Below, piece by piece: positions 14,667 to 31,485 of a DNA stretch of 64,000 nt. Every line of letters begins with the position of its first letter. The stretch's first letter is position 1. Under the pieces are notes generated by a model. It was given only the letters and a program-made list of their open reading frames with translations. It was not told the DNA's origin and made no database searches. The position numbers and the translations under genes were made by a program. The stretch is from Candidatus Dojkabacteria bacterium (GTDB lineage Bacteria; Patescibacteriota; Dojkabacteria; J137): positions 20,228-84,227 of the forward strand of contig JAUZRK010000003.1 in NCBI GenBank assembly GCA_030950485.1, read 5' to 3'.

Positions 14667-15838
14667 AATATTTCTGATAATTTTTTAATACCTTCATCTA
14701 TGCTCTTTAAATCAGGACTAGAAAAATTTAGTCTTAATTTATTCTTCCCATCTAATTTATTGGGAGTAAATAAAGTTCCTGGCACAAATGATACACCATT
14801 ATTAATTGCTTTTTTATAAATTAGATCAGAATCTATATCGTTCTCTCCTTGTAACCAAATAAACATACCCCCTTCAGGTTCTGCGTAACTATAACTCTCA
14901 GGTAAGTATTTATTCAAAGCTTCGACCATTATATCCTTTCTCACTTTATATATTGAGCTCATCTTTTTAACATTAGTATAGAATCTTTCATTGTCTAATA
15001 TTTCTACAACCACATTTTGAGCTAATACATTTGCATGAACATCAACTGAAAATCTCATTGCGTTTATTTGATCTATCAATTCAAACGGACCTGTATAAAA
15101 CCCTACCCTTAGTCCTGGCCCTATAGATTTAGAAAATGTTCCTAAATAAATTACGTTCTCAGCAGCTAAAGAGTATATGCTATTTATCTGCTTATCATTA
15201 AAGTTAATGTGTCCATACGGATCATCTTCAAGTACAATTAAATCATTGTATTTAATGATCTTTGCTAAAGCAGTCCTTCTTTGCTCAGACAAGGTATAAC
15301 CAGATGGATTTTGAAAAGTAGGAATCAAGTAAGTTAACTTAACATCATACTTCTCTATAAGTCTCTCATACTCACTAATTATTATCCCTTCAGAGTCCAT
15401 AGGTATAGGTACTATCTGTGCTTTACAACTTTGCATTGACTGTAAGGCTGCAAGAAAAGTACACTCTTCTACAAGCACAACATCCCCTTCATCTAAAAAA
15501 GCTTTACAAACTGTATCGATAGTTACTTGACTACCTGAAGAAATGCCTACACTTCTAGAATCAATCTCCAAATTTTGTGTTCTCTTTAAAAACCTTGCAA
15601 CGGCTTCTCTAAGTTGTGGAATCCCATTACTAAAACTATAGTTCATTAGTGATAAATCATTTTTTCCTAGAACCTTATCTACTGACTCTTTAAATAGTTC
15701 ATAATCAAGAGACTCTGCCGCTGGATGACCAGCTGCTAGTGAAATAAGATTGTCTACACCAAAGGTGCTTAAGCTATCACGAACAATCTTAGAGTCCATC
15801 AACCTATTTCTTTCTGATAACTTTTTAATATAATTCAT
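14663..15838 (-). CDS. Class I/II PLP-dependent aminotransferase (likely aromatic/prephenate aminotransferase from context)
   Basis: Fold-type I aminotransferase with the PLP-lysine block TFSKSIGPGLRVGF; start/stop overlap with the flanking pheA-like genes. Confidence 0.7.
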   Translation of the reverse strand: MNYIKKLSERNRLMDSKIVRDSLSTFGVDNLISLAAGHPAAESLDYELFKESVDKVLGKNDLSLMNYSFSNGIPQLREAVARFLKRTQNLEIDSRSVGISSGSQVTIDTVCKAFLDEGDVVLVEECTFLAALQSMQSCKAQIVPIPMDSEGIIISEYERLIEKYDVKLTYLIPTFQNPSGYTLSEQRRTALAKIIKYNDLIVLEDDPYGHINFNDKQINSIYSLAAENVIYLGTFSKSIGPGLRVGFYTGPFELIDQINAMRFSVDVHANVLAQNVVVEILDNERFYTNVKKMSSIYKVRKDIMVEALNKYLPESYSYAEPEGGMFIWLQGENDIDSDLIYKKAINNGVSFVPGTLFTPNKLDGKNKLRLNFSSPDLKSIDEGIKKLSEIL

Positions 15839-15847
15839 ATGTATTTT

Positions 15848-16678
15848 CTACTTATTTAATTTATTTCTATATCTTCCTATAATTGAATATTCTATTGTAC
15901 ATTTATCTAATATTGTTTTCAAACCTATCTCAGTTGATGAATCTACAAGCATGTCTATCCAAAAAGCATATTCCCAATTTGTATCTGGGATTGGCCTTGA
16001 TTCAATCTTTGTTAGCGATATGCCTATACCTCCGATACTAGTCAAAAGATTCGCTAGTGATCCAGCAGAGTGCGATACTCTATATATAACGGATATTTTC
16101 TTATAGTCTTTAGCTGACTCCTCAACTTCAAATACATTATTACTAACAAATATAAATCTTGTAACATTATTAGAGTAGTTGCCTATATTTTCTATAAGAA
16201 TTTTTAAGCCTTTTTTCTTTGCAAGCTCAGCTGAACCAATACAAGCTTTAGTCTTATCTTTTAACTTCAGAATATCCTCAGCACCCGCAGCAGTACTTTT
16301 AGATTCGTTAACTCCATACCCTCTTTCATTAATCATTTCAGAACACTGAGCTATAGCTTTGGGATGAGAATATACTTCTTTAATATCTTTGATCTCGGCG
16401 CCTTCTAAAACTATGAGATTTAAAACTATATCCATATTTGCTTCGCCTACTATCCTAAGCTCTTTCTTGAACATAAAATCTATATTTACATGTACTGTAG
16501 AAGTAATTGAATTCTCGATCGGTAAAACTCCAATGGTATTAGAATTAGTTATACACCTCTTTACAATTTCGTTAAAATTGTCTGATGGTTCTAAATTATA
16601 ATCGTTAGAATCAAAACATTTAGAAGAAATAATTCCAGAATAACTTTGTTTTGGTCCTAAATAATATACTGTTTTCAT
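15848..16678 (-). CDS. Prephenate (or arogenate) dehydratase, paralog 2 (PDT + ACT)
   Basis: PDT domain (IGVLPIENSITSTV) and ACT domain (LTKIESRPIPDTNWEYAFWIDM); clearly a paralog of the 13812-14666 gene. Confidence 0.75.
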   Translation of the reverse strand: MKTVYYLGPKQSYSGIISSKCFDSNDYNLEPSDNFNEIVKRCITNSNTIGVLPIENSITSTVHVNIDFMFKKELRIVGEANMDIVLNLIVLEGAEIKDIKEVYSHPKAIAQCSEMINERGYGVNESKSTAAGAEDILKLKDKTKACIGSAELAKKKGLKILIENIGNYSNNVTRFIFVSNNVFEVEESAKDYKKISVIYRVSHSAGSLANLLTSIGGIGISLTKIESRPIPDTNWEYAFWIDMLVDSSTEIGLKTILDKCTIEYSIIGRYRNKLNK

Positions 16679-17439
16679 TCTTCTTTAAGTCTTAATTGTT
16701 TGTTAGATATTTGAGACATAGTCTCTTCTATTGACATCTTTATTTTGTCAAACTGTTTACTACAGAATGGATTAAAGTTATACATATCCTCAGTAATCTC
16801 CATATCAGCACCGATCCTTTCTACAAAATCGTGCATTCTTGATGCTGATACTGTGTCAATTTCAGTCCTCTTCATACTCAATGTTTTAAGCACATGAGAA
16901 ATAGTTAGAGTAGTAAAGTGAAATTCTGAGGCTAGTTCATCATGTCTTTCTGCTGAGATTTCTACAATTTTGTTTTTTAGCTTAATAAATATATCCTTTA
17001 CTATATTGTAAATCTCCTCACTTGCGTTAATATTTTCAATCACAATATTAAAACCCTCTACAGAATTATTATTATGTTTATAAGACTCTGGCCCATACAT
17101 TGGATGGGTACAAATTTTCATTACTTCTACCGGAAGCTCTTTAATCATAATTTTTTTGGGATAAGATTTAATAGAACAAACATCTATAAATATTGAATCA
17201 TTATCTATATACTTTGCTACTTCCCTAGTAACTTTTTCAAATGCTTTTATTGGCACTGATGGAATGACAATGTCGCATTTACAAGCATCTTCAAAATCAA
17301 AAAAGTCTTTGTTATCAATTTTCTTTGACCTTGAAGAAAATTTAATTTGGACATCTACAATTACATCTTCAAACATTGTTTTTAATAGTTTCGAAAACTT
17401 TCCATATCCTATTATCCCTATTGTTTTAATTTCCTTCAT
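16675..17439 (-). CDS. tyrA: Prephenate/arogenate dehydrogenase
   Basis: N-terminal Rossmann GxGxxG (IGIIGYGKFS) and the TyrA catalytic block (CTHPMYGPES). Confidence 0.7.
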   Translation of the reverse strand: MKEIKTIGIIGYGKFSKLLKTMFEDVIVDVQIKFSSRSKKIDNKDFFDFEDACKCDIVIPSVPIKAFEKVTREVAKYIDNDSIFIDVCSIKSYPKKIMIKELPVEVMKICTHPMYGPESYKHNNNSVEGFNIVIENINASEEIYNIVKDIFIKLKNKIVEISAERHDELASEFHFTTLTISHVLKTLSMKRTEIDTVSASRMHDFVERIGADMEITEDMYNFNPFCSKQFDKIKMSIEETMSQISNKQLRLKEE

Positions 17440-17707
17440 CTTCTCTAGTTTTTAAAATAAAGTCATGAATTGTGTTCATTAAATCTGAGATTAACTCTTT
17501 GTCAACTCCAACTTTTGCAGCTAGATCTTTTTTCGACTTCAAAACCTCTTCCCATCTTCCTGGAGCATGAGATGGCATACCAGCATCCTGCTTTGTATCC
17601 CAAGCTCTAGAAGCCGCATTTAATCTTTCTGCAACCCAACAAACGGACATATTATCTAATAGATCTATTGAGTCTCTTAATTGTTTTAGTTTTTCTTCTT
17701 GTGTCAT
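17426..17707 (-). CDS. Chorismate mutase, AroQ class (monofunctional)
   Basis: 93-aa helical protein with the AroQ pattern LKQLRDSIDLLDNMSVCWVAERLNAASRAW... Confidence 0.7.
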   Translation of the reverse strand: MTQEEKLKQLRDSIDLLDNMSVCWVAERLNAASRAWDTKQDAGMPSHAPGRWEEVLKSKKDLAAKVGVDKELISDLMNTIHDFILKTREDEGN

Positions 17708-17735
17708 ATTATTTAATAATTAATAAGTTATATAA

Positions 17736-18092
17736 TTAAAATTCTATTCCCCCTTTTATATTCTCAGTGTTATTTCTTATTAGGAAGAGTCTCTTTAAAA
17801 ACTCAACTATCCCTAAATCTTCATTACTCCAATAATAAATCATTGCCCACAGATTGCCCTTATTTGCTGCTATTTCTGCTGAATCCCACTCTCGACCTTT
17901 TGTATCCATATTAAATTTTGCTTTCAGACTTCCAACTATCCTATTCAACATACCTCTCAAACCTTCTACAGCTGGTCTCTCAGAGGAAGCAATAGCATAT
18001 GTTGCCATATTAGCGTTTGGTATATCAGTTCTTGATTCCTCTAAGTCTGTCAAAGGATCTTTACCCGTATATCTTATATTTGGGTCATTCAT
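17736..18092 (-). CDS. Hypothetical protein (118 aa) inside the aromatic-branch operon
   Basis: ORF tightly packed between chorismate mutase and the upstream micro-ORF (3-nt spacing); no recognisable motif. Confidence 0.5.
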   Translation of the reverse strand: MNDPNIRYTGKDPLTDLEESRTDIPNANMATYAIASSERPAVEGLRGMLNRIVGSLKAKFNMDTKGREWDSAEIAANKGNLWAMIYYWSNEDLGIVEFLKRLFLIRNNTENIKGGIEF

Positions 18093-18094
18093 AA

Positions 18095-18229
18095 TTACTC
18101 TTCTCTCCCATACGTCTTTTCTGCTAAATAAGTAGCTCCATCTTCACCTTGCTTAAGCCTTCTACCTGTACCCATTATTAGGTCAACTCCACCCCTACAA
18201 ATATCGGGGAGTGATGATAGTGATGTCAT
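18095..18229 (-). CDS. Micro-ORF, 44 codons (MTSLSSLPDICRGGVDLIMGTGRRLKQGEDGATYLAEKTYGREE); coding status uncertain
   Basis: ATG 21 nt after the stop of the 450-aa gene; its TAA stop lies 2 nt before the ATG of the 118-aa gene. The packing suggests translational coupling. Confidence 0.25.
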   Translation of the reverse strand: MTSLSSLPDICRGGVDLIMGTGRRLKQGEDGATYLAEKTYGREE

Positions 18230-18250
18230 ATTTTTTATTATTGAGTCATA

Positions 18251-19603
18251 TTAATTAACAAGCATTTGGATCAATTCATTGTCTTTATCTAAATCTAGAT
18301 TATGAGCCATTGTAGCCAGTTCCAAAAGTTGATCTGCAGTTAATCTTAAATTTCCTACCCATGCTCTGCCATTTACAAACTGAGTCGAAACAGTTCTAAT
18401 AACTCCCCCCATTCTAATATGAGCTGATAGAAGACCGTATCTGAGCTTTTCAATTTCGCCATTATCCATTTTTATATATATTTCATCTGGTATTACAGCT
18501 TCTTCAATTACGAATCCTCTAAAGTCGGGGTTTTTACTATATTCATCTATAATCAGTTTACTAATTGCTTCAACCTTAGAATTAATATCACCGAACTCCC
18601 ACATAAAAACCTCTACACCATCTCCGTCTGTCCCAAGCCTTCTTTTTAAAACTACATCTGCAACATTATGCTTTTTATGCATTATTCTCAATGTTCCTCT
18701 AATATATAGATTTAATTCCTCAATAGTCATATCACTATCTAGTTCAAGGCAAAACCCTAAACCAAGAGCAAGATCTTCAGGGTTACCACCTGCCGCAGAA
18801 ACTCTTTGATATATTTCGGACTTAGTTTTATCTGGCAGGTTATTTGAATACATTATTTCTTCAGCAGTTTTACTAGATATATCATTTATCTCTTCCCTGA
18901 GGAGTTTAGGATATAAATTTCCCTTATCTATTAATTTAGCCGACTCTGGACCATTAGCCATTACAAACAGTGGAACTCCAACTTCTTGACTTAAGTAAGA
19001 TATAATTATTTTCATTTCAAGATCAAGGTGATACAGATCAATAGCAATATTTTCCTTTCCAAGCTCTTCTATTAAAGTGGCTATCACTTGAGAACCTTGA
19101 GTTTTTAAATTATCTTTATGATCTCTCATAGCCAGTAAAATACTGTGAGAAGTGTAATACATTTCTTCATTACCTATTTTTAATTGTATTCCCTTGTATT
19201 GATCTCCATCTGCTCTAGGGTACCCTTCTCTCCCAGAAAGAACGGTAATGTCACCCTCAGCCTTAGACATGTAGGTTCTCTGAGTACAGACTGAATTAAT
19301 ATCTATTCCCATTTTAGTTGCAACATCGATTTCATGATGATTCATGTCCCTTGTCCCTGAGGCTATAGATAAAGTCCTCCTAGGTGAAATACCAGCTAAA
19401 TGACTATCTATATTTCTTCTACTTAAAGGTATCATTGCTTGCTGACTTAAATGTATATCTAAACTATTCATTAATTCTTCTCCAAGTAATTCCTCACCTA
19501 TTGCCTCTACTCCGCTGTTTGTCAAAACTATTAAGCTACCTCCTTCTTCGCCAAAGGAGAGTCTATCGTATTCTTCTCCAATTTGTAAATTTTCTATAGC
19601 CAT
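18251..19603 (-). CDS. Hypothetical protein (450 aa), GC-richer than its surroundings; function unknown
   Basis: Long ORF with GGG/CCC-rich codons unlike the neighbouring genes; no motif I can assign with confidence (an ATP-grasp ligase is a loose guess only). Confidence 0.55.
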   Translation of the reverse strand: MAIENLQIGEEYDRLSFGEEGGSLIVLTNSGVEAIGEELLGEELMNSLDIHLSQQAMIPLSRRNIDSHLAGISPRRTLSIASGTRDMNHHEIDVATKMGIDINSVCTQRTYMSKAEGDITVLSGREGYPRADGDQYKGIQLKIGNEEMYYTSHSILLAMRDHKDNLKTQGSQVIATLIEELGKENIAIDLYHLDLEMKIIISYLSQEVGVPLFVMANGPESAKLIDKGNLYPKLLREEINDISSKTAEEIMYSNNLPDKTKSEIYQRVSAAGGNPEDLALGLGFCLELDSDMTIEELNLYIRGTLRIMHKKHNVADVVLKRRLGTDGDGVEVFMWEFGDINSKVEAISKLIIDEYSKNPDFRGFVIEEAVIPDEIYIKMDNGEIEKLRYGLLSAHIRMGGVIRTVSTQFVNGRAWVGNLRLTADQLLELATMAHNLDLDKDNELIQMLVN

Positions 19604-19623
19604 AAAAATATATATTATAAAGA

Positions 19624-19660
19624 TAAAAAAAATCCCCTTTCGGGGATTTATATGTTTTTC
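19624..19660 (-). terminator. Rho-independent terminator (bidirectional shape) after the DAHP synthase gene
   Basis: aaaaaaaa-aatcccc-tttc-ggggatt-tatatgttttt; on the minus-strand RNA the hairpin is followed by a U8 tract. Confidence 0.7.
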
Positions 19661-19837
19661 TACTAGATATGCAAAAACAACCCCTAATTAGGATTTCCAA
19701 AAAAGTAAAAGAAAAAATAGTTTTGGTTTGTTTTTGTTTTATTATTCACGAACTGATGATAACAGAAAGTTTAAATATTTAAAATATTTTTCACTAATAT
19801 TTACAGATAGTCTTATGTACTGCCTTATAGATATAGC

Positions 19838-20742
19838 TTATAAGTCTCTATTCTTCGATATATCAACGACTAGTTTTTTAAGCTCACTGATAGAAATATG
19901 CTGCCCAGTATCTGTTTTAGATGTACCAACTTCTATTAAAATCCCATCATATAAAAATCCGCTTTCATTCAACTTCATATTAGCTGCATCAATCGTAGCA
20001 TCTAAAATACTGTCTCTCATTCTTGGACCATAGGCATGGCTTGGGTCAAAGTACAACTTACAACCGGTTCTCTTTTTTACTCTAGCTGCATGATTATGCA
20101 TAGGATAATTTCTATAGTCAGCTTTTTCTGGAATATCAAATCCTCTATGAATCAATACCGTGTGATTCTTATTATCAGAGTAACTAAGCCTTCCCAAGCA
20201 CTCTCAATAGGAGTTTTTAACTCAGAATTTTTATAATTATCTGCAACTTCAATATGTTCACCAACCCATTTCCCATTTTTTAATCCAACTACCCATTCAT
20301 TTTCTTTTGCAACAGCACTCATTTGCATTACTTGCCAGCCTAGTTGATTTACAGAAGGGTTCCAAATCATAACTTTTTGCTTTGGTAATTCTCTTGAGAG
20401 AACAGGTAACTGTACTATTGGCATCATTATTTCTGTAGCAATATTCAAACCTGTCTTTTTAATTATTTCTTTTGCAATTTCTATACTTGGTGGAATTTGA
20501 AAATCTTTAATATTCCCTCCCTTTGGTAGAAGTTGGAAATTGTACATTAAAGTTTCGTAATCCATTCCCATTCCCTCTCCTGACTTATCTAAAACTGTTC
20601 TAGATTTAAGACCTACAATTCTTGTTCCTGTAATTGCCATTTTGCCATTAATCTCTATCTTTGCAATTTCTAAAATCTCCTTTTTATTATTATCTATAGA
20701 ACATGGTCCCGCATAAATTGAGAACTTTTTATTTTTAATCAT
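19838..20742 (-). pseudogene. 3-deoxy-7-phosphoheptulonate (DAHP) synthase, class I-beta/KDO8PS-like, split by a frameshift near 20165-20175
   Basis: Two overlapping ORFs (196 aa + 119 aa). Together they carry GPCSI, KSRT...GxG, EIM, GLKNG, ...LIHRG and CKLYFDPSHAYG (DPSH) motifs in DAHPS order. The junction ..ESAWEG/LSYSDNK is explained by a 1-nt deletion in a G-rich run. A sequencing error cannot be excluded. Confidence 0.6.
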
Positions 20743-20931
20743 AAATACTATTTAAAAACTATAATTGATTATTCAACCTTTTTTAATGACTAAATCTTCA
20801 TAGTAACATTCTATTAGAAATGTTAAACGATAGAAAGGTACATTTAGAATGTCTTTGAAATGTGACAGAAAAAATATTAATCTATATTTGGAAAAAAACC
20901 CACTCTATACTTTATATATTAATTTTCAAAT

Positions 20932-21171
20932 ATGGATCATTCAGTAATAAAAGATCTCCTTTGGAGAGCTCTAACAGATACATCTTTTAGAGAAATTTTA
21001 GTTAGTGATTTTGAATCAGCAGTTAAGGATCATGAGTTATCTGATGAGGATAAAGCTTTACTAAAAAAAGTAGTTAACGATAAACCAGGTCAAATCGACG
21101 ATCTTGGAAGTTATCTTTCTCAAGTTCTAAGCGAAAGAGATAACAAAGGGTTCATTATGGCTGGTGGGTGA
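20932..21171 (+). CDS. Nif11/NHLP-leader-like small protein (79 aa) ending in Gly-Gly immediately before a TGA stop
   Basis: MDHSVIKDLLWRALTDTSFREILVSDFESAVKDHELSDEDKALLKKV resembles the helical Nif11/NHLP leader (LIAKAW.D..F...LL..P..AL...GV.LS.EE). The ORF terminates ...GFIMAGG-TGA with no core peptide. Confidence 0.5.
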   Translation: MDHSVIKDLLWRALTDTSFREILVSDFESAVKDHELSDEDKALLKKVVNDKPGQIDDLGSYLSQVLSERDNKGFIMAGG

Positions 21172-21179
21172 TTAATCTA

Positions 21180-24100
21180 CTATAATTCCAAGAAATCCTC
21201 AGTTTTTGGTCGTATTAATTTATTAAATACAATCTTAAAAAGCTGAGGATTTTCTATCTTTATTCCGTCTATATCTTTTATAGAATCTATAAATTCATCG
21301 TATGATGATATATTAGCTTTAATTTTTATCTTTTCTTCCCCCATATTTATTTCGAATACAGCAAATGTTTTGTCACCTTCATTTATATCTACTATTCCAT
21401 TATTTATATCTATAAACTCACCCAAGATAAATCTTACTTTTGACATGTCATACCTATGAAACGCCGAAGTAACAGCGAGCTGTGGAGAAAGCGCAAATAC
21501 TCTATCAAGCTGATCTAATAGCCTGTCGATATCTCCAGGAACCATTTCTAATGGTAAAGACTTTATTAAATTCATATATAAATTAGCTTTGGTCTCCTTA
21601 TTTCCTGGAATTCTATGAATAAATTCAGGGTAAAGAAAAAGCATACTTGCTAAGTTTGATGAAACATTAGCAACTCTCTGTCTCATAGATTCATCTTCTG
21701 ATTGACCTAGCATTGATAAGACTTGTAATAAGTTAGTAAGGGCATTTAACCTTACTTTAGAAAATTCCATGACGATAACTTCAGGCAAAAGTCTAATCAT
21801 GTCAGAATAGATATCCGAGATTTCAACTCCCGCATAAAATGCTACTACTGGTTGATTAGTAATCAGTTGAGCTTTAGATCTTGCTGGTATCAAAGTACTC
21901 TTAATCAATATATCTAATTTCTCAGGTGCTGTTTTAGCTTCTACCAGTTGTTGTAAAAGATCAACATTCTTAGGCCTTTTAAACATAGGTTCGTATTTTT
22001 GTTTAATTAAATCTATAACCCTACCTTCTTGTTCAACATCTCCATACATAGTGTAAAGAGAAGCTAATGTAATGCCAAAAGCTCTTAGGTCCTTAGCGTT
22101 AATTATTTCGTCTACAGATTGCTCTAAAAACTGAAGCGCTGTTGCATCTTTTTCTCCCTCTTCTTTTAATGCTTTATATGAATCATATAATAATATAGCC
22201 TTAATCCTTGGATTAGTTTTGCATAACTCATAAAACTTTTCTTCAGACTCACTCATTGATTGCTTAAGTCTCAAAGGCATTAGCTTATATTGGTAGCTTA
22301 CTGCTAATCGACCTATAACTTCAGCAGAATTCTCGTCAATTTCACCAGCATAATTGGCAATAGTATTAATTAATTTAATTAGCCTTTGACTATTAGAGAC
22401 TTCAATCCAAGATCCATCAACAGTTTCATTTAATTCTTTCCATTCAGTGTACAAACTAGCCTTAAATACCAAATCTGGGTTATCCAAAGCATTTAAATCA
22501 ACTCTATCTATAAAATTGAATGTAGATTCACCATTTACAAATGCCTTTTCTGCAAGATCTAAAAAAATCATTGAACTTTCAGCTTTTAGGTTAATATATT
22601 CTTCATTCGCCTCTAGGCGTCTAAACTGATCAGCCGTATTATCTAGAAATTGTGCATACACTAAATTATCACCATTAAAAAGAGAAACGTCATTTTCTTT
22701 TACATCTATTGGTGAAACTTCTAGTGTCCCTTGATAAAATTCGTTAGGAAGAATTCTTATACTCCCATCTGCTTCTTCAAATCTTCTAATCGCCTCGATA
22801 CTTTCCAAATAATCTAATTGAGCTCCTAATGTTTCATTTGAATCTACTTCTAAAATCCTACTAAGTGTGTTTAACTTTATACCTAATTGAAAACCTCCGT
22901 AAGCAGCTTCTAGTACTTTTACTCTTATTTCATCCTGTTTCGTAAATTGTTTGTCTCTAAGTTGATTATAAAGAATCTGAATATAGGTAGAATTGCCATC
23001 TCTAATAGAAGCATTATTATATCCGTATTCCTGTCTTCCATGCATTGCTTCTAATTTTGCGAGATATATACTAGCCTCCGACCATCTTTCATTTTCAATA
23101 AAAAGCGTAAGAGTTCTATCAAAATACATTCTAGGTAAGTGATGTATGTGTGATTCAAGAAACTCTTGTGCATTTATAAATTCTCGTTTAGCTTCAAAAT
23201 CAACATCAACTAAGAAAATGTGATAATTTCCTTCTGTTCTGAAGTGAGACACATCACCATCAATTCCTAAATTGTCATTAATGCTACAAGCTATTCTAAT
23301 TCCTGGTTCTCCTCCAGCCTTGATCATATGTCCTGCGGCTCCCCCTAAAGCATTTACATGAATATTAAATTGTGGCGAATTATAGAATCGAAAAGGTATA
23401 GCATTATCAACTGCTGCGGTTATTCTATAGTTTTCATCTAGACGATTATCATGGAGAACCCTAAGTACTTTAGAGATCTCTGCAGTTTGAGCCTCCAGAA
23501 TAATAAAACCATCTGCTCTAACTTTAACATCGTAGCCTAGTAATCTTGCTTTAGACACAGCCTCTAAAATACTCTGCCTGAATTCTTCATCATAATCATC
23601 TCCATTAACATTTCCAATAAAAATAATACTCTGTCCCGCATCTACCTTATCAGCTATTACAATTTCCTGAGTAGCAGTTTTTATATTTTGAACTATCGTA
23701 GTTTTCCAGCTATCTTCAATACTACCTGCTCGAACTTTTAATTCCTGCTTATTTTGCCATATGGATTTAGCACCTACTTTTAAGTGCACATGTGTATCAT
23801 TATGTGCTTTTAATGATTTCAAATTCTTATCTACTTCTTTACTTCTAGTTTCACAGATAATCCCTACTTTATCAGGAGTATTTACATTTCCTATAGCATT
23901 AAAAGTTGTAGTTAATGAATCGCCCTCGGTTGTCCATCTTAGGTCATCTAATATACCAGGATTTAAAGCTATAAGAATGTCATCTAGATGTTCTACGTAG
24001 CCTAAAATCTCTTCCTCACTTCCATAGAAATGAATCCAAGGACTATCTCCCATTACGTCTACTATTACTGCTTTAGCAGCGCATACTTGCCCAGATCTAT

Positions 24101-24527
24101 TTAATTTATCTATAACCATTCCCAAATTACCAAAAGAGCTTCGATATAAGTTTATACCTCTCTCTACTTGTTTCTTACTAAAACCAACTCCATCAATTTC
24201 CCTCATAGCTTGAGGTCTAACATTTTCAGCTAGACTTCTCGCAGCATGTAGATCCCCATCGCTTTGATAATATACGAGAGTTAAATATATTCTTTCTGGA
24301 GAATAACCGTTGCTAGAACAAAAAGCTAATAAGTTATCAATGTCTAGTATAGCCACTTCAGAACCTTCACCAAATGCTCTAGAAAACAAATCAGGATTTT
24401 GCTCATGTATTTCATTAATTGCAGCTAGTGGATCTAACCTAAAATTGTCTAATACCTCTGTCTCAAACTTCCCATTTTCAGACGTTTCACTATAAAGCAG
24501 ATCTTCAGCATCTCTTTTATCTGACAT
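21180..24527 (-). CDS. Large hypothetical protein (1115 aa), no recognisable domain
   Basis: Uninterrupted ORF; no Walker motif, no HExxH, no Cys clusters. Convergent with the NHLP-like gene (8-bp gap) and divergent from the M50 protease gene. Confidence 0.6.
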   Translation of the reverse strand: MSDKRDAEDLLYSETSENGKFETEVLDNFRLDPLAAINEIHEQNPDLFSRAFGEGSEVAILDIDNLLAFCSSNGYSPERIYLTLVYYQSDGDLHAARSLAENVRPQAMREIDGVGFSKKQVERGINLYRSSFGNLGMVIDKLNRSGQVCAAKAVIVDVMGDSPWIHFYGSEEEILGYVEHLDDILIALNPGILDDLRWTTEGDSLTTTFNAIGNVNTPDKVGIICETRSKEVDKNLKSLKAHNDTHVHLKVGAKSIWQNKQELKVRAGSIEDSWKTTIVQNIKTATQEIVIADKVDAGQSIIFIGNVNGDDYDEEFRQSILEAVSKARLLGYDVKVRADGFIILEAQTAEISKVLRVLHDNRLDENYRITAAVDNAIPFRFYNSPQFNIHVNALGGAAGHMIKAGGEPGIRIACSINDNLGIDGDVSHFRTEGNYHIFLVDVDFEAKREFINAQEFLESHIHHLPRMYFDRTLTLFIENERWSEASIYLAKLEAMHGRQEYGYNNASIRDGNSTYIQILYNQLRDKQFTKQDEIRVKVLEAAYGGFQLGIKLNTLSRILEVDSNETLGAQLDYLESIEAIRRFEEADGSIRILPNEFYQGTLEVSPIDVKENDVSLFNGDNLVYAQFLDNTADQFRRLEANEEYINLKAESSMIFLDLAEKAFVNGESTFNFIDRVDLNALDNPDLVFKASLYTEWKELNETVDGSWIEVSNSQRLIKLINTIANYAGEIDENSAEVIGRLAVSYQYKLMPLRLKQSMSESEEKFYELCKTNPRIKAILLYDSYKALKEEGEKDATALQFLEQSVDEIINAKDLRAFGITLASLYTMYGDVEQEGRVIDLIKQKYEPMFKRPKNVDLLQQLVEAKTAPEKLDILIKSTLIPARSKAQLITNQPVVAFYAGVEISDIYSDMIRLLPEVIVMEFSKVRLNALTNLLQVLSMLGQSEDESMRQRVANVSSNLASMLFLYPEFIHRIPGNKETKANLYMNLIKSLPLEMVPGDIDRLLDQLDRVFALSPQLAVTSAFHRYDMSKVRFILGEFIDINNGIVDINEGDKTFAVFEINMGEEKIKIKANISSYDEFIDSIKDIDGIKIENPQLFKIVFNKLIRPKTEDFLEL

Positions 24528-24599
24528 ATAGTTGAAAGATTCAATAAATAGTATATTATATGGCTAGGATAAGTCCCAAACTCAACGAATTATAGCAAG

Positions 24600-25739
24600 A
24601 TGTTCCGTCATCTCCAAATAACAATGACAAAGAGAAATTACAACTGGCAGAGCAATATAACAATAAACGAAAATTTTTATCTAGACAGGGGTGACAGACT
24701 TGGAAAAGATAAAAACTCGTCACATTATTTCCTTATAGATTCTAATAGCTCTAAAAGAGTTTTGATTTCACCTAACGAAGCTTTTATATGGTTAGAGTTA
24801 AAGGAGAACGGTGATGTGAAAGAGGTTCTATTAAACTATCTTAAAACATTTAATAAGATTGATTATGAACTCTTTGAGAATATTTTAGATAAATGGGCAG
24901 ACGAGGGTATTATCTCAGGAAAAAGCTTAAATATTCATGTTAAGGAAAAAAAGATTGTAGCTAAAAATTTTATACACTATATCTATCTGGTATCAAACTT
25001 AAGTATAAATATAAGCCTATTATCAAAGTTAATAAATAATACATATAAACTCATACCAAAGTTTATGTTTTCCAAATTCGTATCTTTGGGCAGTATTCTT
25101 ATAGCTACAATAATAAACTTTTTCTATCTATCAACATTTATAATACAAGGAGAAGACACTTTCAAATCAGATAACGTTGCATCTTCGTCTTCGCTATTAA
25201 GTCTTCTACTCATTCCTATGATAACAATCATAGTGCATGAACTTGGACATGGGCTTGCTCTTAGCCATATTGGGCTTAAAGTTAAACGAAGCGGATTTAG
25301 GCTTGTTTTCGGTATTCCAGTATTCTTTGTCGATACGTCTGATTCTTGGATGAAGAAGGCATATAAAAGAATATTTGTAACTGCTGCGGGGCTTATAGTT
25401 AATTATTTATTAGCTGCAATTAGTTTATTCATTGTAATTTTAAATACTAATTCCTCTATAGATTTATTTTTCATGGCGTTAGCTATTACGAATCTTCTAA
25501 CATTAGCCATCAACCTGATTCCTTTCCTTGATTTTGATGGATACTACCTTTTAATAGACTCTTTTAATTTACCAAATCTAAAAAATGAATCATTTAGAAT
25601 TCTTCTAAGATTTATAGGGGATCATAAAATATCTAGGAATGAAATTCTGTTTTTATTTTTCAGCTTATTTTGGACAATCTTTCTTGCGGCGTTCATTACC
25701 TTTATGTTCTTACAAATATCAGGCCTAATTTTAAATTAA
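24600..25739 (+). CDS. Site-2-protease-like (peptidase M50) integral membrane zinc metalloprotease
   Basis: HELGHGLALSH (HExxH in a TM helix) plus the downstream NLIPFLDFDGYYLL block (S2P NxxPxxxLDG motif); multiple TM helices. Confidence 0.65.
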   Translation: MFRHLQITMTKRNYNWQSNITINENFYLDRGDRLGKDKNSSHYFLIDSNSSKRVLISPNEAFIWLELKENGDVKEVLLNYLKTFNKIDYELFENILDKWADEGIISGKSLNIHVKEKKIVAKNFIHYIYLVSNLSINISLLSKLINNTYKLIPKFMFSKFVSLGSILIATIINFFYLSTFIIQGEDTFKSDNVASSSSLLSLLLIPMITIIVHELGHGLALSHIGLKVKRSGFRLVFGIPVFFVDTSDSWMKKAYKRIFVTAAGLIVNYLLAAISLFIVILNTNSSIDLFFMALAITNLLTLAINLIPFLDFDGYYLLIDSFNLPNLKNESFRILLRFIGDHKISRNEILFLFFSLFWTIFLAAFITFMFLQISGLILN

Positions 25740-25781
25740 TTCCTATTCCTGATAAACTAAATTATATTTATATAATAATTA

Positions 25782-26228
25782 ATGAATAGATCGAATAGCC
25801 AACTTGTTTTTGTGATAGGTGGCTTGCTACTTATAGCAGCTGCTCTTCTTTTTTTAACTTTTGACAGTGTCGATTCTACTGTAAGCAAAGATGATAGTAA
25901 AAATACAGCTGATCTTAATAAAAGTGCTCCTACAAGAGAAGGAGATATAGTCTCTCATATCGTAGATGGTTTTTATCTAGAAGCTGAGTTTAAAGGAGGT
26001 AATTCATGGGACTTTGTAATTAATGGAAGTGTGCCTAATCCCTGTTATACATATGATACTGAAGTTATTATTGCTGAAAGCTTTCCAGAACAAGTCACTG
26101 TAAATTTAGATGTAAATAAACCAGCAGAAGGTCTTATATGTACTCAAGTAATTGAAGAAGTAACTATAAATGGAAGTTACCAAGCAGATGAAAACTCAAC
26201 AGTTAGACTTAAAGTAAATAGAAAGTAA
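25782..26228 (+). CDS. Hypothetical membrane-anchored exported protein (148 aa)
   Basis: N-terminal TM/signal anchor (LVFVIGGLLLIAAALLFLTF), two Cys; immediately downstream of the M50 gene. Confidence 0.5.
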   Translation: MNRSNSQLVFVIGGLLLIAAALLFLTFDSVDSTVSKDDSKNTADLNKSAPTREGDIVSHIVDGFYLEAEFKGGNSWDFVINGSVPNPCYTYDTEVIIAESFPEQVTVNLDVNKPAEGLICTQVIEEVTINGSYQADENSTVRLKVNRK

Positions 26229-26294
26229 CTAACGTATTTCAATAGTACTTTTGAATTTAAGACTTGTAAATTTTTACAGTTCTTTTTTATAACA

Positions 26295-27929
26295 TTACTC
26301 TTTCAATAAATTTCTCAGACTCCAAACTATTGAAATTATAAATATTATAAAAAGAAGTGATGCTATATCTATTCCTAGCAATAATCTCGTTTTCTCAGTT
26401 ATAACCATCATCATGAAACCTAAGAAACTCAGTGTAGATGTAAATAGAACAGCTTCGATTTTTAATTTATATTTATCCTGTTTATTCTTTTCATTGTCAG
26501 TTTGATTGACGTTTATTTTTATACCATCTTCTGTTAATCCTTTAAGCATTTTAGCTGAATCTTTTGGAATACTTGTTATATTCTCTTTCCAATCAAGTAA
26601 ACCTCTATATGCCTTTGCCATGTCTTTCTTAAAGTTATCGGTATTAAGGTAGTTCAACGGCATATTCATTTGTTCCTTTTCAAATAATGGTTTCATCATT
26701 TCTAAAATATTAGAAGTCGGAGCTACTATTTGAAGCATCCCATCATATATTGCTAATACTTTACCTAATAGAACAAGATACATTGGAAACTGAATCCCTA
26801 GTTTTGTCGAAACAAACATAGCTTCAGTAAAAGCTGCAGTAGGGCTATAACTTTCTGCAATTGATGTTTCTAATTTATCAACAATCTTCTTCAGCTCTTT
26901 TGCTATTACATCTTTAGGCTCAGCACCTTCTTCTTGGTCGAATTTTAGTACAGCTTCTGTAAGGCCTAAATAATCACCTGAAATTAACGCAAATGCTATA
27001 TTTTTAAATTCTTCTACTTGAGTTTTAGTTATCATAGTCACTATCCCAAAATCTATGTATGAAATTTTATTAGGTTCATTCAAAATAATATTTGATGGGT
27101 GTGGGTCTGCATGAACTAATCCATAGGTAAATATTTGACGATATATATTTGTCGTGAATAAATCCAAAATCATTTTCCTACTATAAATTTTACCTTTATA
27201 AGGCTGTTCATCACTACCTGTGTATTTAAATAAGTCTAGAAGCTCTTTTATTGATGGACCTTCAATAAACTCAGTAACCAGGATTTTATCAGTAGAGTAT
27301 TCTCTATATACCTTTGGTGTATGGGTATTTGTATCATTTTGAAAATTTTCTCTAAATTTCTCCATACTAGAAGCTTCTATACTATAGTCAAGTTCGTTTA
27401 ACGTCCAATTTTCGAACTCCTTTATTAATTCACCTAGTTGGAGTTGCTTTATCTGGGGAATGAATGCACTTAATTTAACGATATTTTTTAGTATACCTAC
27501 ATCCTCCCTAATGAGCTTTTCCATTCCAGGTTTCTGTATCTTAATTGCTACTTTCTCATTCTCGCTTAGATAACCTATATGGACTTGTCCTAACGAAGCC
27601 ACAGCTATCGCAGTATCATCAATTGCCTCAAGAATATGACTTGCATTCTCCCCAAGTTCCTCAGAAATTAAATTCTCTACTATTTCAAATTCAATCGGTT
27701 CTCCTGAATCTAGTAAGACCTGTAGTTCTTTACACGTAATCTTATGTAGTAGATCATACCTTACACTTAACATTTGACCAAACTTAATATAAGTTGGTCC
27801 TAGTTCAGTGATTATTTGCCTTAACTCTATACTTTTAGCCTTTATTTCAGGATTACCTAGCTTGTGACCTTGGCTGAGTAAAGGGTATAGCGCTCTTAGA
27901 AATTTTGTTATTTTAAATACAGAGTTCAT
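26295..27929 (-). CDS. UbiB/ABC1-family atypical protein kinase with C-terminal TM anchor
   Basis: ABC1 signature GPTYIKFGQMLSVRYDLL, kinase-like catalytic region (HADPHPSNIIL), C-terminal hydrophobic helices. Confidence 0.75.
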   Translation of the reverse strand: MNSVFKITKFLRALYPLLSQGHKLGNPEIKAKSIELRQIITELGPTYIKFGQMLSVRYDLLHKITCKELQVLLDSGEPIEFEIVENLISEELGENASHILEAIDDTAIAVASLGQVHIGYLSENEKVAIKIQKPGMEKLIREDVGILKNIVKLSAFIPQIKQLQLGELIKEFENWTLNELDYSIEASSMEKFRENFQNDTNTHTPKVYREYSTDKILVTEFIEGPSIKELLDLFKYTGSDEQPYKGKIYSRKMILDLFTTNIYRQIFTYGLVHADPHPSNIILNEPNKISYIDFGIVTMITKTQVEEFKNIAFALISGDYLGLTEAVLKFDQEEGAEPKDVIAKELKKIVDKLETSIAESYSPTAAFTEAMFVSTKLGIQFPMYLVLLGKVLAIYDGMLQIVAPTSNILEMMKPLFEKEQMNMPLNYLNTDNFKKDMAKAYRGLLDWKENITSIPKDSAKMLKGLTEDGIKINVNQTDNEKNKQDKYKLKIEAVLFTSTLSFLGFMMMVITEKTRLLLGIDIASLLFIIFIISIVWSLRNLLKE

Positions 27930-27978
27930 CTGATTACATAATACAGTTTTGTCTTCGTTATAGAAAGACTTCTAACTA

Positions 27979-28008
27979 CAAAGGCGGCAATTATAATTGC
28001 CGCCTCTT
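27979..28008 (-). terminator. Stem-loop (ggcggcaa...ttgccgcc) after the ABC-F genes
   Basis: GC-rich palindrome in an AT-rich spacer just 3' of the 28013 stop on the minus strand, followed by a U-rich stretch. Confidence 0.5.
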
Positions 28009-28012
28009 TAAA

Positions 28013-28735
28013 TTAGACTTCGACTAATTCACCTTCTTCTAGTGTTACCACTCTGTCCGGTCCTATATTCTCAGAAAAATATCTATCGTGTGAAATTAAA
28101 ATCATAGCGCCTTTAAATTCTCTAAGTGCTTCTTCAATTACCTCTTTTGTTTTAATATCTAAATGATTAGTTGGCTCATCAAGAATTAAACAATCGTACT
28201 CATGGTAAGTAAAGATTGCGAATGAAAGCCTTGCTCTCTGTCCAGGACTTAATTTACCAATTTTTTGAGACCTTAAATCTTTATCAAAAAGAAATTTTTC
28301 TAATTGTCCGAAAGAACTACTGAAAGAAACATTAGCTTCTCTCATAAAATACTCATCAACTCTCATTTCCATCGGAAGATGTTCTTGATTTTGAGAAAAG
28401 TATTTCCATTTAAGGTTTTCTCCCCATTTTATAGCTCCCTCTACTGGCTTTAGTTCATTAACTAAAAGCTTTATAAAAGTAGATTTACCAGTACCATTAG
28501 GTCCGACTAACCAAATTTTCTCATTTCCATAAATCTCTAGATCTACACCATTAATCAATGGTGTCTTCTCCTCCCCTTGAGGGAAGGCTGGGAGGGGTGA
28601 TGCTCCCCAATCAAAGACTAAGTCATTAACTTCTAAAACTCTCTTAGTTCTACGAACTTCACCTTCAACAGAAATACTTCCTATAAGCTCTTCTTTATAT
28701 GTGCCAATTTCATTTCTACTTACTTCTCTTTTCAT
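28013..28735 (-). CDS. ABC-F family ATPase, C-terminal half (ABC2 domain)
   Basis: Walker A GPNGTGKST, signature LSPGQRARLSFA, Walker B LILDEPTNHLD, H-loop ISHDRYF; ATGA start/stop overlap with the N-terminal half. Confidence 0.75.
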   Translation of the reverse strand: MKREVSRNEIGTYKEELIGSISVEGEVRRTKRVLEVNDLVFDWGASPLPAFPQGEEKTPLINGVDLEIYGNEKIWLVGPNGTGKSTFIKLLVNELKPVEGAIKWGENLKWKYFSQNQEHLPMEMRVDEYFMREANVSFSSSFGQLEKFLFDKDLRSQKIGKLSPGQRARLSFAIFTYHEYDCLILDEPTNHLDIKTKEVIEEALREFKGAMILISHDRYFSENIGPDRVVTLEEGELVEV

Positions 28736-29499
28736 TCTTGTTTTGCAGCTCTTACAGCCTTACCTCTTTGCTTAGCATCTTTAAGTTTTCTACTATTTTC
28801 TAAAAGTTTTTCTAACTGCTCTCTCTTTTTTTCTTGAGCTTTAAATAATCTTGCTCTCTCTTCAATATAATAATCTTTCGCTTCAAGAAACTTATCATAG
28901 TTTCCATCCCAGATTCTTAATGTCTGCTCGTCAATTTCAAAAATTTTATTTGTAAGTGAATTTAAAAACATCCTATCGTGTGAGATCATAATAATGATTC
29001 CATCGAAGTCCTTTAGAAAGCCTTCAAGCCAAATGATTCCATTAATATCTAAGTGATTAGTTGGTTCATCAATTAGTAAAACTGTCGGTTCTTTTATTAA
29101 AACTTTTGCAAGATATAATTTCATTTTCTGCCCCGGACTAAGTGTTTTTACTTCATCAAACTCATCCACATCAAGTTCAAGTTTTGCCAATAATCGATCG
29201 ACTTTCCACATATCGGTATAGTGATTCGCTACTAGTGATTCTAAAAACTCTCCTACAAATGTAAGCTTCTCAAAACTTAGGTCTAACTCTTGAGGTAAAT
29301 ATCCAATTTTCTCTTCTTTAGTCAGGCTTACATGCCCTTTATCTGGATCTTCTAACCCTGCTAAAATTTTCATCAAGCTAGTTTTACCGCATCCATTCAG
29401 ACCAACAAGACCTACTCTTTCTTTATTTCCAAGTATGAAATTAACGCCAGTAAAAAGTAGTTTTTTATATTCAATTTGTAAATTCTCAGCTTTTATCAT
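28732..29499 (-). CDS. ABC-F family ATPase, N-terminal half (ABC1 domain + linker)
   Basis: Walker A GLNGCGKTS, signature LSPGQKMKLYLAK, Walker B LLIDEPTNHLD, H-loop ISHDR, then a charged helical linker (ARLFKAQEKKREQLEKLL..). Ends ..CAAGAATGA, overlapping the next ATG. Confidence 0.75.
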   Translation of the reverse strand: MIKAENLQIEYKKLLFTGVNFILGNKERVGLVGLNGCGKTSLMKILAGLEDPDKGHVSLTKEEKIGYLPQELDLSFEKLTFVGEFLESLVANHYTDMWKVDRLLAKLELDVDEFDEVKTLSPGQKMKLYLAKVLIKEPTVLLIDEPTNHLDINGIIWLEGFLKDFDGIIIMISHDRMFLNSLTNKIFEIDEQTLRIWDGNYDKFLEAKDYYIEERARLFKAQEKKREQLEKLLENSRKLKDAKQRGKAVRAAKQE

Positions 29500-29777
29500 T
29501 GTTTATATTATAAAGTATTAAGTGCAGTATATACATGCACGCTTTATTGAACTTTGTATTACATTATTACTGTTAAGTTATAACTAGAATAAATGAATGT
29601 TGTTTAAGATTTATTAGGCGTGCAGATTGGACTAAGAAGTTTGTACGTAAATTCTCCCAGAGCATAATGATAAATGCTCTAGAAGTTCTCGACTTTTTGT
29701 TTCGAGTAAAATTATCATAAAAAATATTGCCTATATTAACTATAACGGTTAATATAAAAATATATTACACATAGTAA

Positions 29778-30618
29778 ATGAAATATAAAATTACTGCTTT
29801 AGCTGAAAATACAACTTTTAGACATAATGCTCTAGCTCAGCATGGTCAATCTATATTAATTGAAGCTGGAGATGAATATAAAATGCTATTTGATGTCGGA
29901 GAGATTCCGGGTGCTATTGAACATAATATGAAACAATTAAAAGTAGAATTAAATGATATTAATGACGTAGTAATTTCTCATAGACATATTGGTGCACTTA
30001 CAAACATGGTAAGTAATTTAAATGATCAGAGAGTATATTTACCGACGCAGCTTGGTGAAGAAGATATTAGAAATCATCCTGAAAAATATAATTTCCTACC
30101 TAAGAATCCAGACGGAGGATATGACTTAGCAAATATCTAAGGAGGATGCTTTACTTTTAAATGAGAAGCTTAATACTGTAGCTGTAGATAAAGAAGGTTT
30201 TGAAATTTCTCATAATATATATACTTCTGAAATTGCAGGTGATTGGATGGAAGAGCAAGCTATTGTTATCGATCAAAAAGAATTAGGAATAATTGTCATA
30301 GTAGGTTGCTCACATCCAACCTTAGAAGTTATGGTTGAAAAAGCAAAGATTACTACTGGAAATAATAAGGTAAGAGGAATAATAGGAGGTTTTCATCTTG
30401 CAGATAAAACAGAAGACGAGATCATTGAGTCTGCTAATAAATTCAAATCCTTTGGAATTGAGTTTATGGCTCCAGGTCACTGTACAACAGTTGGAGGATG
30501 TCAGATTTTAGAGAAAACCCTAGGAAGTGAAATCGTAAGATTATCTAAAACTGGAACATTTGCTACTGGTAATAATATAGAAATTAATGGCAGTGAGATT
30601 TTATTTAATTTTGTTTAA
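29778..30618 (+). pseudogene. COG1237-type MBL-fold metallo-hydrolase, split by a frameshift (ORFs 29778-30140 and 30247-30618 in different frames)
   Basis: N-terminal part has the beta-lactamase-fold His block (VISHRHIG). C-terminal part has GCSHP...GGFHL...PGHCT motifs typical of this family. Together they reconstitute one ~280-aa protein. Confidence 0.5.
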
Positions 30619-30629
30619 ACAGTAATTTT

Positions 30630-31247
30630 ATGAGAGATGATATCAAATTAGTATCTTTTGATATGTCAGGTACATTAGTTCTCGGATCAGGTTCAAACTC
30701 TGGAGCTAAATTAGTAGGCAGAGGAGATTTCTATGATAAAAATAAAAGTCTATACCAAGATGGAAGTATAACTATGCAAGAATTTCTTACAGGAACATTT
30801 GCTGAATGGGAAGGTTTAAGTATCTCTAAGTTGCCTGAAATAATTGAATCATTTACTTTTAGAGAGAATGCAGAAGAAACTGTTAAAGCTGTTAAAAAGA
30901 AAGGCTATAAAACAGCATTCTTAACAAACGTACCTATTCAATTAAGTATGCTGCTGAAAGAAATGTTTGAGTTTGATTTTGTAGCTGGTACTAATTTAGA
31001 AGTGATAGATAATAAATTTACAGGAAAAATTTTAGAGTATGCAGGTGATAAAGTTGCTTCTTTAGGTAAGATATTAAATACTGCTGGATTAGATTATAAA
31101 GATGTTGTTCATATCGGTGACAGAAGAGATGATGCAGAGGTATTTGAAAAAGTGTCTTTCGGAATTGCAATTAGTGATGATGATTATGTTAATTCTGTAG
31201 CTGATTACCAAATAGAGAAAATAGAAGAGGTTCTAGAAATTCTTTAG
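30630..31247 (+). CDS. HAD-superfamily hydrolase
   Basis: Motif I-like FDMSGTL at the N-terminus and motif IV HIGDRRDDAEVF. Confidence 0.55.
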   Translation: MRDDIKLVSFDMSGTLVLGSGSNSGAKLVGRGDFYDKNKSLYQDGSITMQEFLTGTFAEWEGLSISKLPEIIESFTFRENAEETVKAVKKKGYKTAFLTNVPIQLSMLLKEMFEFDFVAGTNLEVIDNKFTGKILEYAGDKVASLGKILNTAGLDYKDVVHIGDRRDDAEVFEKVSFGIAISDDDYVNSVADYQIEKIEEVLEIL

Positions 31248-31259
31248 AAATTAATAACG

Positions 31260-31292
31260 AAGCTAATTAAGTAAGCATTACTTAATTAGCTT
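31260..31292 (+). terminator. Perfect 15-bp stem / 3-nt loop hairpin after the HAD gene: putative bidirectional terminator
   Basis: aagctaattaagtaa-gca-ttacttaattagctt, followed by a T-rich run; AT-rich stem. Confidence 0.4.
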
Positions 31293-31485
31293 TGATTAAA
31301 TTTATCCATAAATTTTTATTCAACTTTACTACTTTTCTCCTCACCATTATTTACTTCAGAAATTAACTTTCTCTTACCCAAGTAATATCCAGAAGCAAAA
31401 ACTCCTCCAATAAAAATAAAATGTAGTAAAAAAACTATAATACTCATAGGTTATAATAATAAAACTTTAAACATGATACAAGAAT

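Follow-up and report, generated by a model that had tools for sequence, protein, structure and literature searches.

A candidate RiPP-type precursor and an RRE-fused M50 peptidase flanking an orphan gene in Candidatus Dojkabacteria

The locus described here raises the question of whether three genes lying together in a Candidatus Dojkabacteria genome form a system for peptide maturation. They are found in a stretch of 64,000 nucleotides, hereafter the window (GenBank assembly GCA_030950485.1, contig JAUZRK010000003.1, positions 20,228 to 84,227; all positions given below are those of the window unless stated otherwise), and code for a 79-residue protein with a leader-like amino-terminus, a very large protein of 1115 residues and a membrane metalloprotease of 379 residues (Table 1). 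The first-pass annotation of this DNA, whose three open reading frames (ORFs), coordinates, strands and spacings were all reproduced, had seen in the trio the architecture of a maturation system for ribosomally synthesized peptides with post-translational modifications (RiPPs). One part of this proposal is kept: the small protein and the protease are both RiPP-like, the protease having a relative that sits in a biosynthetic gene cluster (BGC) of Kallotenue. The other part is not, as the large protein bears no relation to any maturase. Our reading is that the locus represents a plausible pair of RiPP-type precursor and peptidase with no recognisable maturase, a proposal that we consider evenly balanced between right and wrong.

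The membrane protease and its relatives

The protease has both sequence motifs of the M50 (site-2-protease type) family, HExxH and NxxPxxxxDG, located in its membrane helices, in line with its initial description as an HExxH membrane metalloprotease beside the large ORF. The score against the Pfam M50 profile (PF02163) is 28.6 bits, just over the gathering cut-off. Only two NCBIfam profiles match it and both describe RiPP maturation proteases: NF041824 (daptide_HExxH), the best family match (E 7.8e-32), whose alignment covers the core of the protease only (residues 171-341), and NF058609, the YydH/LiaK epipeptide maturation metalloprotease (E 1.6e-17). Assignment to either equivalog was rejected. 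In the case of the daptide enzyme the score is 110.8 bits for a cut-off of 300, the neighbours characteristic of a daptide BGC (MpaB/C/D/M) are missing, and the 79-residue peptide ends in Gly instead of Thr. For YydH/LiaK the score is 64 bits for a cut-off of 225 and no CxxxCxxC-bearing ORF of at least 150 codons is present in the window.

Homologues were sought in a 5.8e9 word index and, for the large protein, also by an exhaustive HMMER pass covering 1.84e9 representative proteins. Queried alone in the word index, the protease retrieved nothing except itself; queried as a fusion behind the 79-residue peptide, it retrieved 138 relatives with E values down to 1e-20 (relaxed search, checked by local phmmer). 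The first outcome is read as a miss at the stage of candidate collection, and a single negative result from the word index is not proof of absence. The residues H213-E214-x-x-H217 and N305-x-x-P308-x-x-x-x-D313-G314 are invariant across an alignment of 100 relatives. Most relatives are approximately 710 residues long, with the M50 core placed between an N-terminal domain and a HlyD-type adaptor; no relatives come closer to the window M50 core than these fusions, whose identity to it reaches 39% (E 1e-20).

The N-terminal domain carries the main argument for a role in RiPP biosynthesis. At least seven of the ~710-residue relatives have a Pfam PqqD domain, which has the fold of a RiPP recognition element (RRE). 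In six of the seven it occupies residues ~29-101, with the M50 core beginning at ~200, a position collinear with the N-terminal domain of the window protease; the seventh (P0081) has a shorter N-terminus. The Pfam PqqD profile gives no significant match on the window protease itself. In the AlphaFold2 model built from the 100-sequence alignment (predicted local distance difference test score, pLDDT, 80.2; predicted template modelling score, pTM, 0.75) residues 20-101 fold into three strands and then three helices, arranged as a PqqD-like winged helix. Fold matches of lower rank to this domain include the RRE-bearing RiPP enzymes TglHI, TbtB, MibB, LynD, NisB, MccB and SuiB, and Foldseek concurs. 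The RRE fold of the protease is shown by this predicted structure. We read the protease as an RRE-fused M50 RiPP-type leader or carrier peptidase, a divergent new member of a known architecture. RRE-fused intramembrane peptidases are a class-independent marker of RiPP biosynthesis, and the RiPP flavour first attributed to the flanking protease is, through its RRE, stronger than could be seen at that stage.

The architecture is the one of MpaP, described as the RRE-dependent intramembrane leader peptidase of daptide BGCs. The two proteins have the same length (379 residues) and the same order of N-terminal RRE and M50 membrane core with HExxH and NxxPxxxxDG. Their genetic settings differ: the window has no adjacent gene for the DUF-RRE protein MpaB, the alcohol dehydrogenase MpaC, the aminotransferase or the methyltransferase. 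Daptide precursors feature an invariant C-terminal Thr and an ELExMEAP leader whereas the window peptide ends in Gly and lacks ELExMEAP. A stand-alone relative of 371 residues is encoded in Kallotenue papyrolyticum (P0100; ~30% identity over residues ~173-372). It is collinear with the window protease in its N-domain and M50 core and adjoins precursor genes in an RiPP BGC (locus L052; JAGA01000003.1, positions 7140-17116 of that record). Three Cys/Ser-rich precursor genes coding for 61-65 residues are followed there by the RRE-M50 peptidase gene, and the cluster further encodes a 183-residue protein as well as, after the peptidase gene, YcaO, two nitroreductase-type dehydrogenases and the N- and C-domains of LanB, with ABC-2 transporter genes upstream; it is a thiopeptide-like BGC. 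Its precursors, unlike the window peptide, are not NHLP-like, and its YcaO, dehydrogenase and LanB functions are absent from the window.

The 79-residue protein and its possible processing

Profile searches place the small protein's N-terminal part close to the NHLP clan. Residues 8-47 align to positions 5-46 of the 63-position profile NF038399 (Os1348 family, NHLP clan; E 2.3e-7, 30.8 bits, cut-off 40), residues 9-55 to PF14407 Frankia_peptide (E 5e-4, 20.7 bits, cut-off 48) and residues 8-51 to NHase_alpha (E about 0.09, in Pfam and NCBIfam alike). In ECOD, Frankia_peptide, Nif11 and NHase_alpha all fall within a LigA-like three-helix domain. The matched families are RiPP precursors, either predicted or backed by experiment; PF14407 was predicted as such in a 2009 survey of ATP-grasp enzymes. 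A graspetide precursor should have an ATP-grasp ligase gene beside it, and at the present locus no neighbouring gene matches an ATP-grasp family. Judged from these profiles the leader similarity appears real but sub-threshold, and the protein would be a sub-threshold member of the known NHLP clan. Its gene has a gene-like GC content at the three codon positions (0.54/0.31/0.19), has no other small gene near it and no paralogue in the window. Relatives of the protein were not found with the fused-query word index, in the PDB or in a metagenome scan, the word index being weak for short divergent peptides.

The 79-residue protein ends with GFIMAGG followed by a TGA codon; it has no Cys, and the two Gly are its last residues. 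This terminus had initially been taken for a Gly-Gly cleavage motif with no core peptide behind it. That interpretation is not supported: no C39/PCAT transporter is encoded nearby (the neighbouring ABC genes are ABC-F-type ATPases only, with no membrane or C39 domain), the PosA/PflA family has no double-glycine site, and the last ~24 residues may themselves be a core. A Gly-Gly C-terminus is expected by chance in ~0.45% of proteins, and the one seen here has no statistical weight. A 130-residue ORF (36033-36425, minus strand) likewise ends in Gly-Gly. Addition of a core after the Gly-Gly by readthrough or UGA recoding was considered and rejected. TGA is a true stop: among the 45 ORFs in the window with 150 codons or more, five end in it, and in four of those five a TAA or TAG follows within the next 3-7 codons. 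The 24-residue tail DDLGSYLSQVLSERDNKGFIMAGG lies outside the envelopes of all leader families. It could be a core peptide by analogy with PosA and PflA, which are modified in their C-terminal tails.

Os1348, after which the family of the best-matching profile is called, is PosA, a precursor protein of 85 residues and six helices from Pseudomonas. In the C-terminal tail of PosA, Gln is hydroxylated and an ARMD motif is the site of oxidative cleavage. The window protein resembles PosA and PflA in being small and in having a putative NHase-alpha-like N-terminal leader, with no C39 transporter in either system. It differs by the lack of a poly-Gln/ARMD tail, and its locus lacks the GNAT, alpha-ketoglutarate-HExxH and MNIO-nitroreductase genes; conversely, the pos and pfl clusters have no protease while the window locus has one.

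A working scheme can be drawn from these features. The 79-residue protein would be a cytoplasmic protein composed of an N-terminal NHLP-clan (nitrile-hydratase-like) helical leader and the 24-residue C-terminal tail. The cytoplasmic N-terminal RRE of the protease would dock its leader and present the peptide to the intact M50 zinc site in the membrane, in an architecture like that of MpaP. The M50 core would then cut the protein, so that its C-terminal fragment is freed at the membrane or across it. That the 79-residue protein is the substrate of the protease is a supposition that we hold with middling confidence.

The large orphan protein and the surrounding genes

The 1115-residue ORF is a true gene. 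At 31% GC a chance ORF would soon meet one of the abundant stop codons, and the GC content at its three codon positions (0.47/0.32/0.21) follows the pattern of real genes. The window corresponds, from position 17284 to 35738, to contig JAUZSD010000001.1 of a public metagenome-assembled genome (MAG) of Candidatus Dojkabacteria (GCA_030949735.1), and reaches 17.3 kb beyond the end of that contig. The match is not exact: nine single-base indels and five substitutions were counted over 18.4 kb, and the window stems from another, perhaps better-polished, assembly. Every in-gene indel leaves the longer ORF in the window version (an ABC ATPase of 240 versus 108 residues; 118 versus 88+44 residues). 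A base is absent from the public record at window position 21803 and the large ORF is annotated there as two proteins of 909 and 196 residues, while it is intact in the window.

Both homology searches returned self-matches only for the large protein, namely the two halves of this same gene in the public MAG. Whether analysed whole or as five fragments, it matched nothing in Pfam, NCBIfam, PADLOC and PHROGs. A PDB sequence search with the whole protein and with its alpha/beta region gave only a chance-level match to an RRM (E 0.5-2), and tblastn against phages and plasmids as well as pattern scans of viral and metagenome contigs gave none. The motifs P-loop, HExxH, CxxC, GxGxxG and CxxxCxxC are all missing from its sequence, which has five Cys, is acidic (176 Asp+Glu for 120 Lys+Arg) and contains neither a transmembrane segment (maximal 19-residue Kyte-Doolittle hydropathy 1.16) nor an internal repeat; the first-pass annotation had likewise reported the lack of a P-loop, metal signature and transmembrane segment. 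The single-sequence AlphaFold2 model is unusable (pLDDT 39). It tentatively suggests, at low confidence, a succession of a helical segment (1-145), an alpha/beta region (~150-420), a long helical region (~450-1020) and a small beta unit (~1045-1072), and its submission to Foldseek yielded generic ARM/HEAT solenoid noise (template modelling score about 0.1). Identification by eye of residues ~150-420 as a class III cyclase or palm domain was dropped, as no search supported it. The large protein is a lineage-specific, soluble, acidic, multidomain orphan (ORFan).

Identity with LanM, LanB, LanC or LanKC was rejected on the basis of the lack of any LANC_like, DUF4135, Lant_dehydr_N/C or kinase match and of a Zn-ligand motif among the five Cys. 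The early remark that the protein is devoid of the LanC Zn/Cys-His motifs is in agreement with these data, and the remark that it belongs to no known maturase family agrees with the lack of profile, PDB and homologue matches. Its likening to LanM/LanB-like enzymes has to be given up, since no relation to LanM, LanB, LanC or another maturase is detectable. No signal of the PEARL family PF04738 was obtained with sequence profiles for the whole protein or its fragments, and no similarity was seen to proteins of the loci of the protease relatives, the Kallotenue LanB included. Given its position, the large protein may be functionally linked to the peptide and the protease, a tentative view that we favour less than its negation. 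We think it unlikely to be a modifying enzyme. A catalytic role is less likely because enzymes are seldom singletons and because no catalytic signature is present. If involved, the protein would more probably serve as a partner binding or modifying the peptide than as a catalyst of a known kind, and a maturase function is on balance unlikely.

Table 1. Features of the locus. Positions refer to the window; aa, amino acids.
Feature	Position	Strand	Basis
79-aa NHLP-clan-like small protein, candidate precursor or carrier peptide	20932-21171	+	ORF, also called in public annotation, profile matches
Leader-homology segment of the 79-aa protein (residues 8-47), predicted NHase-alpha/LigA-like helices	20953-21072	+	hmmscan envelopes
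C-terminal tail DDLGSYLSQVLSERDNKGFIMAGG of the 79-aa protein (residues 56-79), possible core or carrier C-terminus	21097-21168	+	
1115-aa soluble acidic ORFan	21180-24527	-	ORF, homology searches, intrinsic features
Divergent intergenic region between large gene and protease gene (72 bp)	24528-24599		sequence
379-aa M50 (site-2-protease type) intramembrane metallopeptidase with predicted RRE fusion	24600-25739	+	profile matches, relatives, AlphaFold2 model
Predicted N-terminal RRE of the protease (residues 20-101), three strands then three helices	24657-24902	+	
M50 catalytic membrane core (HExxH 25236-25250; NxxPxxxxDG 25512-25541)	25185-25619	+	
148-aa protein with N-terminal membrane anchor or signal	25782-26228	+	

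The peptide gene and the large gene converge on an 8 bp gap (21172-21179). The divergent gap separating the large gene from the protease gene widens to 96 bp with the start codon of the public annotation, which places the protease start at Met9. A shared divergent promoter region had been proposed for these two genes. The short divergent gap is there and holds two promoter-like sites, one on each strand; such sites are no commoner across the region than in shuffled sequences (33 observed versus 27.4 +/- 4.3), and terminator-like sites also show no enrichment above the shuffle expectation. The GC content is 27-35% throughout the window, with no compositional break at the locus, and no tRNA gene or Rfam match was identified within the window. 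The gene of the 148-residue protein lies 42 bp 3′ of the protease gene on the same strand and is possibly co-transcribed with it. Its product had no family match in scans of the Pfam and NCBIfam libraries, and a weak precomputed match to PF27154 is the only one on record.

The genes upstream, on the minus strand, code for a split DAHP synthase, two ORFans, chorismate mutase, prephenate dehydrogenase, two prephenate dehydratases, an aminotransferase and EF-Tu. The 148-residue membrane-anchored protein, an ABC1 kinase, ABC-F-type ATPases, a HAD hydrolase and a methyltransferase are encoded downstream. Housekeeping genes surround the peptide and protease genes, and no further family of candidate substrates occurs there. 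No radical-SAM-type ORF and no paralogue of the three genes are present in the window. A single scan of genome contigs with the flanking ABC1 kinase revealed no Dojkabacteria relatives.

Several of these neighbours deserve a comment of their own. The segment 13812-20742 (minus strand) is a post-chorismate Phe/Tyr gene set in a genome of the Candidate Phyla Radiation (CPR), with DAHP synthase at its head and no shikimate-pathway genes nearby. It is divergent from the peptide gene, from which a 189 bp spacer separates it. DAHP synthase (19838-20742, minus strand) is encoded by two overlapping ORFs of 196 and 119 codons corresponding to the N- and C-terminal parts of PRK08673; the split is common to the window and the public record, and corresponds to a frameshifted pseudogene or to an uncorrected sequencing error. 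The two ORFans within the set (450 residues, 18251-19603; 118 residues, 17736-18092) have no family or PDB match. On the other side of the locus, adjacent ABC ATPase ORFs of 255 residues (with an ABC_tran_Xtn linker) and 240 residues overlap by ATGA (28013-29499, minus strand) and resemble one ABC-F-type protein in two ORFs, the second of which is cut to 108 residues in the public record. A 560-residue ORFan (32441-34123, minus strand) has no Pfam match in our scan or in the precomputed annotation.

Weighing the explanations

Several observations weigh against the reading of the locus as a precursor and peptidase pair. The three genes form three transcription units (plus, minus, plus), with 3.4 kb between the peptide gene and the protease gene, and the locus has no gene recognisable as coding for a modifying enzyme, a transporter or an immunity protein. 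The 79-residue protein scores under the cut-off of every curated family, and it has no match to TIGR03793 and TIGR03798 (E<=1) or to Pfam Nif11 PF07862 (E<=10); of the Nif11/NHLP leader-like N-terminus announced by the first-pass annotation, the similarity to the NHLP clan has held and the match to these three families has not. The RRE call depends on an alignment-driven model: a profile built from the N-domains of the relatives falls in register on the window protease at 0.5 bits, which is not significant. None of the sampled RRE-M50 relatives has an NHLP-type precursor beside it, and recognition of NHLP leaders does not usually involve an RRE. A single MAG is the only record of the exact peptide and protease sequences and of the two halves of the large protein; that the trio is not seen conserved elsewhere, which the first-pass annotation would have counted as a refutation, is for this reason uninformative.

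Coincidental grouping is the rival that survives best, and we judge it rather unlikely. The ORFan would be an unrelated, fast-evolving CPR protein (for example an alpha-solenoid scaffold or regulator) and the 79-residue protein a helical protein foreign to RiPP biosynthesis. The protease would act on another substrate, encoded elsewhere or corresponding to the co-directional 148-residue membrane-anchored protein. The separate transcription units, the housekeeping flanks (aromatic amino-acid operon, EF-Tu, ABC1 kinase, ABC-F) and the lack of maturase, transporter and immunity genes are all as expected in this case. An ORFan devoid of catalytic motifs also argues against a conserved enzyme, the small protein is sub-threshold for all families, LigA-like three-helix domains occur in non-precursor proteins too, and a Gly-Gly terminus is not rare. 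However, an RRE implies a leader-bearing substrate, and the sole NHLP-clan-like small gene is two genes away. The chance of this gene and the protease gene lying within two genes of each other is below 1% if each is single-copy among ~1000 genes, a rough figure that was not computed from the whole genome. The 148-residue protein has only ~8 cytoplasmic residues and could not reach a cytoplasmic RRE.

In a second alternative, which we consider improbable, the large protein would be cargo, a substrate processed or exported by the RRE-M50 protease, by analogy with the loci of the RRE-M50-HlyD fusions ('putative peptide zinc metalloprotease'). Giant proteins are encoded next to three of the five sampled loci of this type (L051, L057 and L061): two have DUF4347 (>2909 and >1448 residues) and the third, of 8202 residues, has no Pfam match on record. 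L051 and L061 also carry genes for an outer-membrane factor (OEP) and a HlyD-type adaptor, so that two of the three loci have recognisable secretion components; the flanks of L057 have no domains on record. This suggests a system for secretion or processing, so far uncharacterised, where very large substrates are handled by an intramembrane protease bearing an RRE. The window protease has its predicted RRE at the N-terminal position where these fusions have PqqD, and its gene and the large gene are divergent neighbours. The fusions differ by their C-terminal HlyD-type adaptor and their diderm hosts, while the window protease has no such module and no OEP, membrane fusion protein or ABC partner. 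The large protein, moreover, is unlike anything found in those loci, being acidic and helical and having no DUF4347, adhesin-type repeats or signal peptide.

A carrier-peptide pathway, pearlin-like or otherwise new, in which the large protein, as a new kind of enzyme, would ligate a residue to, or modify, the tail or the Gly-Gly of an NHLP-like scaffold and the RRE-M50 protease would free the product, is given a similarly low probability, and its strict pearlin form a slightly lower one still. Pearlin systems (TglA/TglB/TglG; TmoA/TmoB/TmoG) rely on a carrier peptide devoid of a core, on a PEARL, which is large and LanB-like, and on an M50 protease, bound to the membrane, by which the C-terminal residue is trimmed; TglG and TmoG are M50 carboxypeptidases that recycle the core-less scaffold. 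Applied to the window, the 79-residue protein would be the core-less scaffold, the ORFan would add a residue at its Gly-Gly, and the protease, acting as a carboxypeptidase, would release the product and recycle the scaffold. Among known systems this is the best fit to a leader without core, a large protein and a membrane M50 protease, and the trio matches the three roles in size and order. The peptide stops after its leader-like part and a short tail, and its gene is divergent from an amino-acid operon of the Phe/Tyr branch. Against this, the LanB-type glutamylation domain of PEARL (Lant_dehydr_N) is undetectable in the large protein, which also has no likeness to the Kallotenue LanB. Adjacent tailoring enzymes (DUF692/MNIO, radical SAM, methyltransferase) are missing, pearlin carrier peptides are not described as NHLP-like, the protease has more in common with daptide-type leader peptidases than with any protein carrying the TglG annotation, and the Gly-Gly end has no weight. 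A classical NHLP/Nif11 lanthipeptide system in which the large protein would be a diverged LanM, LanB or LanKC, which only the gene sizes and the leader-like peptide would recommend, is effectively refuted by the profile and Cys data of the large protein presented above, by a peptide with no Cys and nothing after its Gly-Gly, and by the missing C39 transporter.

We return to the reading of the locus as a precursor and peptidase pair. To our knowledge, RiPP pathways are rarely documented in CPR bacteria, which have small genomes and few biosynthetic clusters. The daptide class was reportedly discovered starting from an RRE-fused intramembrane peptidase. The pairing of peptide and protease in a CPR genome, with an ORFan between them and no known maturase, would be new if functional. 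A peptidase of this kind near an NHLP-clan-like protein and without a maturase would point to a minimal 'cleave-only' system, or to a protein, not recognised as such, that performs the chemistry. Were the ORFan that enzyme, it would be the founder of a new maturase family; if it is not, it would be an ordinary orphan gene beside a two-gene module for peptide processing.

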